Virus record (IMG/VR): IMGVR_UViG_2718217885_000001
Strand: one strand, 5' to 3'
Length of the DNA: 34,427 nucleotides
DNA from: a virus
Taxonomy: Duplodnaviria > Heunggongvirae > Uroviricota > Caudoviricetes
Under the pieces are notes generated by a model. It did not search any database, was not told the DNA's origin, and worked only from the letters and a program-made list of their open reading frames with translations. Below are positions 1-34,427 of the stretch, piece by piece. A program made the position numbers and the translations under genes. Position 1 is the first letter of the stretch, and the number at the start of each line of letters is the position of its first letter.

Positions 1-1023
1 TTATGTGGATGAAATGTGGATGCCTCCTTTTAACGGATTAAGTGAAATTGCATCCTGGAGGAAATCAGGAGCGAGGTGCGCATAGGTCATAGTTTGCTGG
101 ATCGTGGCGTGCCCCATAATTCGCTGGAGCGTAAGTATATTTCCTCCATTAATCATAAAGTGAGCAGCAAAGGTATGGCGTAGAACATGTACAGCCTGTC
201 CTTTTGGTAGGTCTGGCTTAACACTGCGAAGCACCTTGCGATATTCCTCATAATTGACGTCAAACAAAAGGCCGGATTTCTTTGTTTTGATCTCACTAAC
301 AACTTCATCAGAGACAGGAATAATTCGAACTTTTCCGTTTTTAGTTTTGTTAAACGTCACGCGATTATTGATGATGTGTTCCGCGCGCAGATTTTTCGCT
401 TCTCCCCATCTCGCCCCAGTACTGAGACAAAGTAGCGTAATCCGCCGGGCATCACCGCTTACTGCATCCAGTAATTTGGCGATTTCTTCCGTGGTGAGAT
501 ACGTCATTTCGGGTGATTTTCGTTTCAAAGAGGGGAGGGCGCGGAGCGGATTTTCTCCGTGAAATTCCCCGGCATTTGCCAGGAGTGTAAACATTCCTCC
601 GAGATCCGACTCATCACGCCGAACAGTAGACTCTTTTACTCCCAAGGATAAACGGGAGCTTCGATAAGCGGCCATGAAACGAGCATTAATCTGGCTAACC
701 CTTGGATCATTCATTTCTTTGATGATTTTTTTCAACCTGGTTAGAACGCCGTTAGCATATGGCTTATTGCGTCCACCCAATTCCCACCATAACGGAAGCA
801 GATCTGAGAGATGACGTTGCTCTGTTGGCTTTTCAAGCCATTCCTTATCGTGCATGTGGCTGAGAACATAACGCTCAAAGGCCACTGCATCTGCCTTTTT
901 CTTAAAAATCCGCTGAATCCGACGTCCACTTCGGCCACGCGGTCTAACATCCACTTTATACCGTCCACCATCGAGCGCTTTAATTGCCATTGGCAAGCCC
1001 TCCGGTGAAACGAGGAAAGACAT
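1..1023 (-). CDS. int: Tyrosine site-specific integrase (P2 Int-like)
   Basis: 340-aa ORF; C-terminal catalytic signature VLRHTFAAHF ... GHATIQQTMTYAHLAP (R..H-x-x-R ... Y); sits downstream of the repressor on the same strand as in P2. Confidence 0.9.
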   Translation of the reverse strand: MSFLVSPEGLPMAIKALDGGRYKVDVRPRGRSGRRIQRIFKKKADAVAFERYVLSHMHDKEWLEKPTEQRHLSDLLPLWWELGGRNKPYANGVLTRLKKIIKEMNDPRVSQINARFMAAYRSSRLSLGVKESTVRRDESDLGGMFTLLANAGEFHGENPLRALPSLKRKSPEMTYLTTEEIAKLLDAVSGDARRITLLCLSTGARWGEAKNLRAEHIINNRVTFNKTKNGKVRIIPVSDEVVSEIKTKKSGLLFDVNYEEYRKVLRSVKPDLPKGQAVHVLRHTFAAHFMINGGNILTLQRIMGHATIQQTMTYAHLAPDFLQDAISLNPLKGGIHISST

Positions 1024-31328: not shown

Positions 31329-31485
31329 AGCTTCAGCCCCTTGTATCCGTTAAATGATTCGGCAACAATCATCACCCACCACGCGCGTAATCTCACCCCT
31401 GCGCTATTCTCCCGCCACGGCGACAACAAAAAGCAGTAACCCACTCCGCACACACATGCGACCATGCCGCACAGGGAGGGAACAG
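31329..31485. promoter_or_regulatory. Divergent promoter region between the sheath operon (leftward) and D (rightward)
   Basis: 157-bp noncoding spacer between divergent starts; has no counterpart in canonical P2, where FI...U-D are co-linear. Confidence 0.4.
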
Positions 31486-32595
31486 ATGACCGACACCACC
31501 ATGCAATTGCTCAGTCAGGGCACAGACCCCGTGAAAATGCCGGATTTTGATATTCTCGCGGAGGGTAAAACGCTGTCCGGCGTGGCAGAGCGCCTGATGA
31601 GCCTGTCGCTGACCGACAACCGGGGATTTGAGGCGGACCAGCTCACCATCACGCTGGATGATGCCGATGGCCAGTTGCAGCTACCGCCACGGGGCGCGCG
31701 TCTGACGGTTCTCATTGGCTGGAAAGGGGAACCGCTGACAGAAAAAGGCACTTACATTGTTGATGAAATCGCTCACGAAGGACCGCCGGACAGGCTGACT
31801 GTTTCAGCCAGAAGCGCAGATTTTCGGGATGAATTTAACGTTAAACGTGAGGTGTCCTGGCATGATGTGACCGTTGAGCGTGTGGTATCCGCCATCGCTC
31901 ATCGGTACGGTCTGAAACCGCAAATCAGCGAAATGCTGATGGATATCGAAATCGACCACGCCGACCAGACCGAAGAAAGCGACATGTCCTTCCTTACGCG
32001 CATGGCGGAAATGCTGGGCGCAATCACCACGGTAAAAAGCGGTAATCTGTTATTCATCATGCCCGGAGGTGGCGTGAACGCGCAGGGCCAGCCGTTGCCA
32101 TCGTTTGCCATCACACGCAGCAGCGGCGATCGCCATCAGTTCCGCATTGCTGACCGCGAGGCGTATACGGGTGTACGCGCCTACTGGCTTGATCTTAATT
32201 ACGGGAAAAAGAAAAAAGTCAGCGTGAAACGCCGCAAACCGCCAAAACCCAAAAAGGAGAAAAGCAGCAGCCGCGAAGGTGACTATATGGAAGGTGCGGA
32301 AGGCAACGTATTTGTGTTACGCAAGACTTATCAGAACGAGCAGGCAGCAAGACGCGCAGCGGCGGCAAAGTGGCAGCAGCTACAACGCGGAGCCGCATCA
32401 TTTTCCATCACGCTGGCACGTGGACGCGCAGAACTCTACCCCGAAATGCATGGCACGGTAACAGGATTTAAAAGCGAGATTGATAATCAGGACTGGATTA
32501 TTGCAAAAGCCGAGCACACCATTGATAACAGCGGCTTTACCACGCAGCTTGAGCTTGAGGCAAAAATCCCGGAATGGATAGCGGAAACAGACTGA
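31486..32595 (+). CDS. D: Tail protein D (late-gene product, P2 gpD-like)
   Basis: ATG at 31486 with gggaggg RBS; about 369 aa; followed by the ogr-like gene. Confidence 0.75.
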   Translation: MTDTTMQLLSQGTDPVKMPDFDILAEGKTLSGVAERLMSLSLTDNRGFEADQLTITLDDADGQLQLPPRGARLTVLIGWKGEPLTEKGTYIVDEIAHEGPPDRLTVSARSADFRDEFNVKREVSWHDVTVERVVSAIAHRYGLKPQISEMLMDIEIDHADQTEESDMSFLTRMAEMLGAITTVKSGNLLFIMPGGGVNAQGQPLPSFAITRSSGDRHQFRIADREAYTGVRAYWLDLNYGKKKKVSVKRRKPPKPKKEKSSSREGDYMEGAEGNVFVLRKTYQNEQAARRAAAAKWQQLQRGAASFSITLARGRAELYPEMHGTVTGFKSEIDNQDWIIAKAEHTIDNSGFTTQLELEAKIPEWIAETD

Positions 32596-32637: not shown

Positions 32638-32898
32638 ATGTTCCGTTGTCCGCTTTGTGGCGCATCTGCCCGTATCCGCACCAGTCGTCCGGAAAATGAT
32701 TCAAACACCGTGCGGCAAAAGTATTACCAGTGTAACAACCTGGAATGCGGCGTATGCTTCTCAACACTGGAAGCCTTCCATAAATTCACATCAAAACACG
32801 CCTCCGGCGTTCACTCTTCAGAAGGTATCCCGTGGCATGAGCTGCCAGCTTCACACAGGGGAAACAATCAGATGAGTTTGCCTTTATCTCAGAATTAA
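32638..32898 (+). CDS. ogr: Ogr/Delta-type zinc-finger late transcription activator
   Basis: N-terminus MFRCPLCGASARIRTSR...YYQCNNLECGVCF, C-x2-C...C-x4-C like P2 Ogr (MFHCPLC...YHQCQNVNC); gggagg RBS. Confidence 0.8.
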   Translation: MFRCPLCGASARIRTSRPENDSNTVRQKYYQCNNLECGVCFSTLEAFHKFTSKHASGVHSSEGIPWHELPASHRGNNQMSLPLSQN

Positions 32899-33315
32899 CA
32901 GGCAGAATTGCCGGAGTAACAAAAAAGCGATAGATTACGCGCGGGTGCCTTTCGGCTGATGGTCGGAGGGAATACCCGAAGGCCAGATGTGGAAAGGCCC
33001 GGAAAACATTTTTGTTTAACCGAGGCCCTAACACTTCTTACCTTCGCAAGTAGAAGGTTAGCGCCTCTCCTCTCAGGAGACAAGCGTTATGACGCAAATT
33101 CCGTTAAAAACCCTGTTACTTTGCATAACTGCGGTAGCGATAATCTGGATCCTCCACACATCACCGTGCGAGTTACGATTCAGGTTTGCTGGCACGGAAA
33201 TTGCGGCATTCTTACTATGTAATAAGTAAGATAACCGCGACGGGGGAGTAATCCCCCGTCAATCGGTTGCTAAGGTTGGTCGAAACGGCACCCTATCTCA
33301 CAGACATGAACAACA

Positions 33316-33349
33316 AACCCGCAGCGTAAAAACTGCGGGTTTTCTTTTT
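33316..33349 (+). terminator. Strong rho-independent terminator
   Basis: aaacccgcag-cgtaaaaa-ctgcgggttt followed by tctttttg. Confidence 0.75.
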
Positions 33350-33396
33350 GCTACCCTCACAAATGAGGGCAGCATCCATAAGCAATAGGCATAACA

Positions 33397-33431
33397 GATC
33401 GATGCAATAAATCCGATCGATAAAAACGATC
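33397..33431. promoter_or_regulatory. Cluster of three GATC (Dam) sites inside ATCGAT palindromes, just upstream of a -10-like element and the com-like gene
   Basis: GATC at 33397-33400, 33415-33418, 33428-33431; then ttgttatcat. Confidence 0.5.
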
Positions 33432-33478
33432 GATTTGTTATCATATCGGCAGCAGTAACCACACAAGAGGTGCCGCAA

Positions 33479-33676
33479 ATGACGCAAAATGTACGATGCA
33501 AAAATTGCAACAAACTACTTGCCCGCGCCTCATTTCACTACATTGAAATAAAATGTCCGCGCTGCAAAACACTTAACCAGATAACGAGAGCCATCGAGCA
33601 CCCCACACACATGAGGAGTTATGACCGTGGGGATCGCAATCCAGCACCAACCAGCACATACACCGGAACACACTAA
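33479..33676 (+). CDS. com: Com-like zinc-finger translational activator (Mu Com family)
   Basis: MTQNVRCKNCNKLLARASFHYIEIKCPRCKTLNQ...EHPT resembles recalled Mu Com (RCKNCNKLL...HIEIRCPRCK...EHPT); ATG at 33479 with aagagg RBS; 3' end overlaps the next gene. Confidence 0.75.
   Translation: MTQNVRCKNCNKLLARASFHYIEIKCPRCKTLNQITRAIEHPTHMRSYDRGDRNPAPTSTYTGTH
33601..33632 (+). promoter_or_regulatory. Hairpin enclosing the methyltransferase RBS and start codon (candidate Com-responsive translational operator)
   Basis: ccccac (33601-33606) pairs with gtgggg (33627-33632); loop holds GAGGAG and the ATG at 33621. Confidence 0.45.
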
Positions 33677-34427
33677 GGTTTATCAGACTGACAATGCCAC
33701 GCTCTGTCGTGGGAATGCGCTGGAAATATTGCCGCTGATTGAGCCAGAAAGCATTGATGCCTTAATCACTGACCCGCCTTACAGTTCGGGCGCGACACAC
33801 AAGGCCGGACGCACCAACCAGGGCAGCCATGCAAAATATCTGAACGGTGAGAACCTTCACCGCTTTGATGGGTTCGCGGGTGAAAACATGGACGCCCGTT
33901 CGTGGGCTTACTGGACACAATTATGGATGGCACAGGCACACCGCGCAGTCAGGCCGGGCGGTTATGCCCTGGTATTTACTGACTGGCGACAACTACCAGC
34001 TTTAACCGATGCGTTTCAGGCCAGTGGCTTTACATGGCGCGGCATCATTGCGTGGAACAAGGGGAGGGGGTCACGAACACCACATACCGGGTATTTCCGG
34101 CATCAGTGCGAATACATCGTCTGGGGCAGCAAAGGCCATTTAGATAAATCGCCTTCGGGACCGTTCGACGGCTGCATGACGTTCCCGGTTATTTCGTCAA
34201 AGAAAATGCACCCGACCGGAAAACCAGAAGAACTAATGGCGGAACTGGTCAGGACTGTGAATAGTGGCGGAACAGTCCTTGATCCTTTTATGGGGTCAGG
34301 GACAACGGGTGTGGCTGCACTGAAAGCAGGGCGAAAATTTATTGGTATAGAAACCAGCGATCATTATTTTGAGGTAGCAGCGCAGCGGCTTCGGGGGACT
34401 ATTACCACAACCATTTCGGCTACATAA
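33621..34427 (+). CDS. DNA methyltransferase, beta-class (DPPY before FxGSGTT), probably N6-adenine
   Basis: Motif IV ITDPPYS upstream of motif I DPFMGSGTTGVAA; start overlaps the com-like gene; GTG at 33627 is an alternative start. Confidence 0.8.
   Translation: MTVGIAIQHQPAHTPEHTKVYQTDNATLCRGNALEILPLIEPESIDALITDPPYSSGATHKAGRTNQGSHAKYLNGENLHRFDGFAGENMDARSWAYWTQLWMAQAHRAVRPGGYALVFTDWRQLPALTDAFQASGFTWRGIIAWNKGRGSRTPHTGYFRHQCEYIVWGSKGHLDKSPSGPFDGCMTFPVISSKKMHPTGKPEELMAELVRTVNSGGTVLDPFMGSGTTGVAALKAGRKFIGIETSDHYFEVAAQRLRGTITTTISAT

Follow-up and report, generated by a model that had tools for sequence, protein, structure and literature searches.

In bacteriophage Mu, the Com protein binds the mom mRNA beside a translation-inhibition hairpin and activates translation (cited in PMC6483171; mechanism also in PMC3378877). 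The Com motif obtained by systematic evolution of ligands by exponential enrichment (SELEX) is NGAGNNCC(N)2-3GAGNNCC, the element actually bound is CC(N)2-3GAG, and in Mu this element adjoins the hairpin that holds the mom GUG start codon (PMC6483171). A com gene is also found immediately upstream of a DNA methyltransferase gene that replaces mom, as for FluMu Hin1523, Hia5, Pnm1 Nma1821, and B3 ORF47/48; putative Com sites have already been noted for hin1523, and Com-linked methyltransferases protect DNA from many restriction enzymes (PMC3299994). Among the P2-like phages, Com and an N4/N6 methylase are annotated in KS5 (gp21/gp20; PMC3091744) and likewise in Smp131 and Chuche, and in RsoM1USA an unannotated Com-like open reading frame (ORF) lies just upstream of an annotated methyltransferase. 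The pairing of Com with a methyltransferase is therefore not new, having been published for FluMu/Hin1523, Hia5, and B3 and annotated in KS5, Smp131, and Chuche. Here, we analyze such a pair at the right end of a P2-like Escherichia coli prophage (IMG/VR record IMGVR_UViG_2718217885_000001; the full 34,427-nucleotide stretch is referred to as the window), where a self-contained cassette of ~1.1 kb at the attR end probably places a beta-class DNA methyltransferase under control of the Mu com-mom type.

An earlier note on the window had proposed this core reading, Mu com-type control acting on a conventional methyltransferase, and it is supported by both protein and nucleotide homology. Judged by sequence comparison, the elements in the window are homologous to the Mu com-mom control region and are not a chance resemblance. 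Several of these features are modest when the window is considered alone; therefore, the weight of the evidence rests on the comparison with other phages. Searches of the literature on Com-family proteins and on P2-like prophage methylomes found nothing on this cassette.

The com gene (33479-33676, plus strand, ATG to stop), preceded by the ribosome-binding site AAGAGG at 33465-70, encodes a 65-residue zinc ribbon matching PF10122 (Zn_ribbon_Com; E=9.5e-12, 44.6 bits versus a cut-off of 22.9). The zinc cysteines C7, C10, C26, and C29 (CxxC ... CPRC) are invariant when the proteins of Mu, KS5, and L004 are aligned, L004 being a Mu-like E. coli phage inserted in an Stx2c phage (LC727881, 1801-3007). 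The window protein is 49% identical to Mu Com, 61% to L004 Com, and 32% to KS5 Com, and it is 100% identical to the "gpCom" of phage Chuche. Its reading frame overlaps that of the methyltransferase by 56 nucleotides, so the earlier observation of a 65-residue Com-like ORF running into the methyltransferase start holds. We regard the protein as a putative translational activator of the Com family. Its RefSeq product name is "DNA-binding transcriptional regulator," which is probably wrong, as the literature describes Com as an RNA-binding translational activator.

A predicted Com operator, GAGAGCC-AUC-GAGCACC, is located at 33586-33602 (plus strand) in the mRNA. GAGNNCC(N)2-3GAGNNCC occurs once in the window when both strands are counted, with 0.16 occurrences expected, and its final CC forms the first two bases (33601-02) of the 5' arm of a hairpin. 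In Mu, FluMu-like, Cardiobacterium, Burkholderia/KS5, and other loci, a related element, GCC-N2-3-GAGC(A/G)YC, stands upstream of the start codon of the next gene after com; the com frame does not cover it in the FluMu-like ones. In a four-way nucleotide alignment of the window, Mu, L004, and the more diverged locus L072, the blocks GAG..GCC...GAGC.CCCAC and GTGGG are invariant. Regarding the small stem at the Com site, Mu homology would allow only a 2-bp GC/GC stem with the loop CAUCGA, and the minimum-energy fold pairs CGA/UCG around GAGCCA. No Rfam family was found over the Com operator or the hairpin, the sole match being a sub-threshold sok-like hit upstream.

The hairpin itself, a predicted translation-inhibition structure at 33601-33632 (plus strand) recognized from folding and conservation, pairs CCCCAC (33601-06) with GUGGGG (33627-32), as the earlier note had indicated. 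Its 20-nucleotide loop holds the ribosome-binding site GAGGAG (33613-18) and an AUG (33621-23), with an inner helix between 33610-14 and 33619-23. Thermodynamic support is modest on its own (-18.4 kcal/mol over 86 nucleotides, z=-2.1; 4 of 200 shuffled sequences were as stable). Among 32 distinct enterobacterial versions of the cassette, variable columns are absent from the arms (0/12), and they make up 8/20 of the loop and 18/27 of the downstream columns (Fisher p=0.0006). The outer pair of the Mu arms, UCCCAC/GUGGGA, is U-A where the window has C-G, a compensatory change, and other families have arms that differ in sequence (GCCAUAG/CUAUGGC, UGCCAU/AUGGCA, CGUCAUCU/AGAUGACG, and CAUCGA/UCGAUG) but in which the start codon is paired as well. 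Between families, the loops differ too much in length and the arms too much in sequence for reliable automatic alignment, and each family was folded separately with the start codon as anchor. In a set of 19 junctions that follow diverse com genes and are not all independent, the start codon is usually paired, GUG starts with CAC and AUG starts with CAU. The mean pairing probability of the start codon is 0.75 at these junctions versus 0.48 at 40 control gene starts of the window (p=6e-4).

Comparison of the same region suggests a different start codon for the methyltransferase than the one assumed so far. The loop ATG at 33621, which the earlier note took as the start and which is also the RefSeq start (268 residues), lies just 2 nucleotides past GAGGAG and is not conserved, reading TTA in L072 and being absent from L004. 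The in-frame GTG at 33627, within the 3' arm, is invariant, lies a canonical 8 nucleotides past GAGGAG, and corresponds to the GTG start of Mu mom and to that of the L004 enzyme. A protein cluster of 1486 member sequences has a length of 266 residues, which fits initiation at the GTG. The conserved start is therefore probably GTG 33627, giving a protein of 266 residues, and the RefSeq start is probably wrong. Codons 1 and 2 (GTG GGN) are part of the hairpin and the next ~25 residues are not common to com-less relatives, and the N-terminus looks like a fusion joint.

The downstream gene (33621-34427 from the ATG or from 33627 for the GTG, plus strand) encodes a protein matching PF01555 (N6_N4_Mtase, E=2.1e-33). 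Motif IV, DPPY (residues 51-54), precedes motif I, FMGSG (residues 223-227), which is the beta-class order and agrees with the beta-class DPPY assignment made earlier. The best solved relatives are adenine methyltransferases, namely 5hek (E=3e-21) and CcrM, and the window enzyme is probably of the N6-adenine type. Viral relatives at 43-56% identity outside its own clade mostly lack com, with an exception at L104/L105 (43%). That most of the closest relatives lack com suggests an independent origin of the linkage, which here probably arose by capture of an enterobacterial Mu-type cassette. Among the loci sampled, the genes downstream of com encode Mom and alpha-class, beta-class, and C5 methyltransferases. 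L004 has the CCCCAC/GUGGGG hairpin and GTG start found in the window, followed by a C5-cytosine methyltransferase (PF00145, E=2e-42). Four loci with weaker Com-like matches (L020, L034, L036, and L038; from metagenome-assembled genomes of Firmicutes and others) have non-methyltransferase genes after the Com-like zinc ribbon, among them one for a sigma-70 region-4-like protein, one for an AMP-binding enzyme, and some of no known function. Either the zinc ribbons in these loci may be unrelated to Com, or Com may be put to different uses there.

Upstream of com, GATC sites at 33397, 33415, and 33428 span 35 bp, each within a GATCGAT heptamer that occurs nowhere else in the window. A cluster of this kind is weak evidence by count alone, as 3 of the window's 88 GATC sites fall within 35 bp in ~22% of random placements. 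Their spacing of 18/13 bp is exactly that of Mu Pmom (18/13; AF083977) and close to that of agn43 (19/13), and in Mu and the window alike the Pmom-type GATC sites are formed by (C)GATCG(A) repeats. The sites fall in a predicted OxyR-like tetramer site at 33394-33430 (plus strand) that scores 15/20 against the OxyR consensus ATAGnTnnnAnCTAT-N7-ATAGnTnnnAnCTAT, the highest value reached anywhere in the 34-kb window. The published OxyR targets, Mu Pmom (13/20) and agn43 (14/20), score lower in that register, and the L072 site likewise reaches 15/20. GATC sites 2 and 3 are invariant in the four-way alignment, and their positions are matched in L004, whose two GATC sites lie at -64 and -51 relative to the com start. 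All three sites are kept in 28 of the 32 distinct sequences, and the diverged L072 and L059 retain the sites and their spacing though substituted between them.

A predicted sigma-70 promoter (33417-33444, plus strand) overlaps the OxyR-like site and is the sole promoter-like element there. It consists of a -35 element TCGATA (33417-22), a 16-bp spacer, and an extended -10 element TGtTATCAT (TG at 33436-37, TATCAT at 33439-44), with a transcription start expected near 33451. The -10-like element downstream of the three GATC sites had been pointed out before; it stays a prediction, as the promoter scan found 1 site versus 1.0 +/- 1.2 in shuffled sequences, a count not above chance. The extended -10 element varies in one of nine columns across the 32 relatives. 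A tblastn search of the window with the Mu proteins C and Mor gave noise only (best E 0.49-2.1), and after the third GATC the Mu C dyad (TTAT-N6-ATAA C site), the T-run, and the poor promoter are all lacking. From this GATC to the com ATG the distance is 51 bp in the window, 51 bp in L004, and 78 bp in Mu. An Ogr box of P2 late promoters (TGT-N12-ACA, expected ~55 bp before the transcription start; at most one mismatch allowed) was not found in 33300-33480, a search of low power since the window's own P/O intergenic region matches only with one mismatch. An exact TGT-N12-ACA at 33554-33571 was rejected, as it lies within the com CPRC codons and too near the methyltransferase start for a -55 element; the codons of the zinc finger probably produce it by coincidence. 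Given that no activator C was found and that the promoter overlaps the OxyR-like site, the timing of transcription probably differs from that in Mu. The suggestion that the same two-layer logic as in Mu operates here thus stands in part: the Com/hairpin translation layer and the Dam-site operator are homologous, and the transcription step, which lacks a Mu C/Mor gene and a C site, is not fully the same.

Taken together, control of the com-mom type would proceed as follows. The cassette would be transcribed from its own promoter, insulated from the upstream hok gene by a terminator. OxyR would bind and repress at unmethylated or hemimethylated GATC sites, and full Dam methylation would exclude OxyR and permit transcription. 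By homology with Mu, com would be translated first while the ribosome-binding site and start codon of the methyltransferase stayed locked in the hairpin; Com would then bind GAGNNCC-N3-GAGNNCC, which overlaps the 5' arm, and open the hairpin, allowing initiation, most likely at GUG 33627. The enzyme would methylate replicating phage DNA before packaging, such that the progeny would resist restriction in the next host. Tight control of this kind suggests that untimely expression is harmful, as it is for Mom, Hia5, and M.EcoGII.

Several points weigh against this account. The harmfulness of untimely methyltransferase expression is an assumption. The invariance of the hairpin arms could partly reflect coding constraint, as the arms also encode residues of both proteins. 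The predicted promoter is reasonably strong and has no phage activator site, so that in a dam+ lysogen it might be ON, which is hard to square with expression confined to late times. Within the shallow close clade, the extra conservation of the GATC columns over neighboring columns is not significant (p=0.27). L007 has lost 31 bp between GATCGAT repeats and retains one GATC, L069-L071 combine the same deletion with a G-to-A change and retain none, and in L046 the second site (window 33415-18) reads GAAC; these variants indicate that the Dam/OxyR layer is dispensable in some lineages. The persistence of variants with one or no GATC, the unremarkable conservation of the GATC columns, and the absence of the triad upstream of the com cassettes examined outside enterobacteria would all fit an element that is a relic of the Mu-type cassette, with control purely translational and transcription constitutive or by read-through. 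We consider this improbable, as three sites are retained in most versions, as L072 and L059 preserve sites and spacing despite intervening substitutions (with an undiminished OxyR score in L072), and as the strong upstream terminator speaks against read-through.

The same operator could instead work as an agn43-like epigenetic switch, in which Dam and OxyR compete at the three GATC sites and set com and the methyltransferase heritably ON or OFF in single-copy prophages, resulting in phase-variable host methylation; alternatively, it could respond to phage genome copy number or replication after induction. This might be expected of a cassette that does without the Mu activator and has its predicted activator-independent promoter inside an agn43-like OxyR site with similar GATC spacing, with neither a Mu C/Mor homolog nor an Ogr-box-like TGT-N12-ACA upstream, and phase variation of mom expression has itself been noted as unknown (PMC2909390). 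However, the promoter is predicted, as is the binding of OxyR, and some variants have no GATC sites at all. An enzyme of broad specificity would also carry a cost in the ON state, and for related prophage methyltransferases silence in lysogens has been reported (PMC5778455, PMC4659465). We judge such a switch or sensor to be unlikely. Regarding the translational step, ribosomes on com might open the hairpin in cis, with no need for Com protein in trans, since the com frame (to 33676) crosses the entire hairpin and its translation must unfold it. This would not account for a SELEX Com motif lying exactly at the hairpin, nor for the FluMu-like cassettes, where com stops before the hairpin while motif and hairpin are both present and activation must therefore be in trans, and it is at odds with the Mu work in which Com acts on the mom mRNA next to the hairpin (cited in PMC6483171). 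Coupling as the sole mechanism is hence quite unlikely, even if cis coupling and trans effects of Com could add together.

The window begins with the integrase (1-1023, minus strand), and its end at 34427 is exactly the stop of its last gene, the methyltransferase. Left of the cassette are gpD (31354-32595), ogr (32638-32898, PF04606), and a hok/sok-type toxin module at 32943-33229, between ogr and the com-methyltransferase pair. This module contains a hok-family toxin ORF (33089-33229; PF01848, E=2.5e-8) overlapped by a mok-like ORF (32959-33222), and the Rfam sok match at 32943-33100 is below threshold (36.7 bits versus a gathering score of 59). A hairpin with a T-run at 33315-33350, called on both strands by the terminator scan, resembles a bidirectional terminator, ends the hok unit, and marks the left boundary of the cassette. 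Next to this boundary, an inverted repeat, CCCTCA-CAAA-TGAGGG (33355-33370), is variable or deleted in relatives.

The earlier note was unsure whether the module belongs to the prophage or to flanking DNA, and three comparisons now place it inside. Homology to the window in P88, a P2-like phage without the com-methyltransferase pair, ends at ~33352, just past the hok terminator. The isolated phage Chuche has the pair in its genome at 94% nucleotide identity, followed by attP and the integrase. In a near-identical E. coli lysogen, where the prophage lies between pheL and raiA, the 20-bp repeat ACAAAAAACGCGCCCGAAGG is found left of the integrase and again ~100 bp past the methyltransferase stop. 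On the evidence of these flanks, the module is an accessory cassette of ~1.1 kb inside the prophage, between the hok terminator and attR. Beyond the window's end, the corresponding sequence L002 (6199-6330) has a methyltransferase terminator hairpin, AAGCCCGCA-TTTTTT-GCGGGCTT, and the attR repeat before raiA. The integrase has 329 residues in the near-identical lysogen versus 340 in the window prophage, and such different integrases in near-identical prophages indicate that they are mosaics. The cassette is carried by 170 of 5426 complete E. coli genomes (~3%), and ~1000 genomes have the hok-terminator flank only, without it. The enterobacterial cassette is also present on the L007 contig (NZ_JBQPOM010000071.1), with a Com 92% identical to that of the window; this contig is labeled Vagococcus sp. 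WN89Y, a Gram-positive organism, and is likely a contaminant or a wrongly labeled assembly.

While the cassette reveals no new principle and is a further example of a known arrangement, it shows the com control region of Mu to be portable, moving as a unit of com gene, RNA motif, and start-codon hairpin, to which a Dam/OxyR-type operator is added in enterobacterial phages; right at the hairpin GUG, this unit is fused to unrelated DNA-modification genes. Should methylome surveys find prophage methyltransferases of this kind silent, control of the com type would explain it. If the operator were a switch after all, the prophage methyltransferase would be phase-variable in E. coli lysogens, a "phasevarion" driven by Dam and OxyR; if it were a sensor, methylation would be timed without any phage transcription factor. 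With its simple, activator-free layout and an isolated phage (Chuche), the system is suited to the question of mom-type Dam/OxyR phase variation.

Compared with the described systems, the operator resembles that of agn43 (flu), a Dam/OxyR phase-variation switch of E. coli, where three GATC sites also lie in one OxyR site, with similar spacing and, read in one register, a similar match to the consensus. However, the first GATC of agn43 coincides with the 5' end annotated for the IsrC transcript, which places its sites at or downstream of the start, whereas the window site overlaps the predicted -35 element, and agn43 has no Com layer. M.EcoGII and M.EcoGI, non-specific methyltransferases that are silent in lysogens (PMC5778455), are likewise beta-class DPPY enzymes of E. 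coli prophages and harmful if uncontrolled, but they are other proteins (349 residues) from a different prophage; an identification of the window enzyme with M.EcoGII, whose paper makes no mention of Com (PMC5778455), was rejected on these grounds. The FluMu-like loci share the Com motif and the start-codon hairpin with the window. Their com does not overlap the hairpin, and the enzymes of FluMu, Hia5, Nma1821, and B3, likewise with a presumed anti-restriction role, are of the alpha-class D12/Dam-like type (PF02086), are carried by Mu-like phages, and have no GATC triad upstream. Membership of the window enzyme in the Hia5/Hin1523 family was rejected, as FxGxG precedes DPPY in that family, opposite to the motif order here, and BLAST gave no link between the window enzyme and the Hin1523-like cluster.

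The P2-like phages KS5, Smp131, RsoM1USA, and Chuche (Peduoviridae) belong to the same phage family as the window prophage, have a methyltransferase of the same Pfam family, and show the overlapping com-methyltransferase layout; their enzymes are 40-47% identical to that of the window (97% for Chuche). Except in Chuche, the pair lies near tail or portal genes and lacks a GATC/OxyR-like operator, and the Com of KS5, the one aligned, is only 32% identical to that of the window. Mu com-mom differs in the downstream protein, Mom (PF25680) as opposed to a beta-class methyltransferase (PF01555); in its transposable host phage, as opposed to a P2-like one; in having a C gene, a C site, a T-run, and a poor promoter with a 19-bp spacer, all missing from the window; and in a promoter located downstream of the OxyR site, where the predicted window promoter overlaps it. 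Yet Mu and the window agree in the spacing of three GATC sites within an OxyR-type site, in a zinc-ribbon Com protein (49% identical), in a com gene that overlaps the gene downstream, and in a Com RNA motif adjoining a CCCAC/GUGGG hairpin whose 3' arm contains the GUG start.

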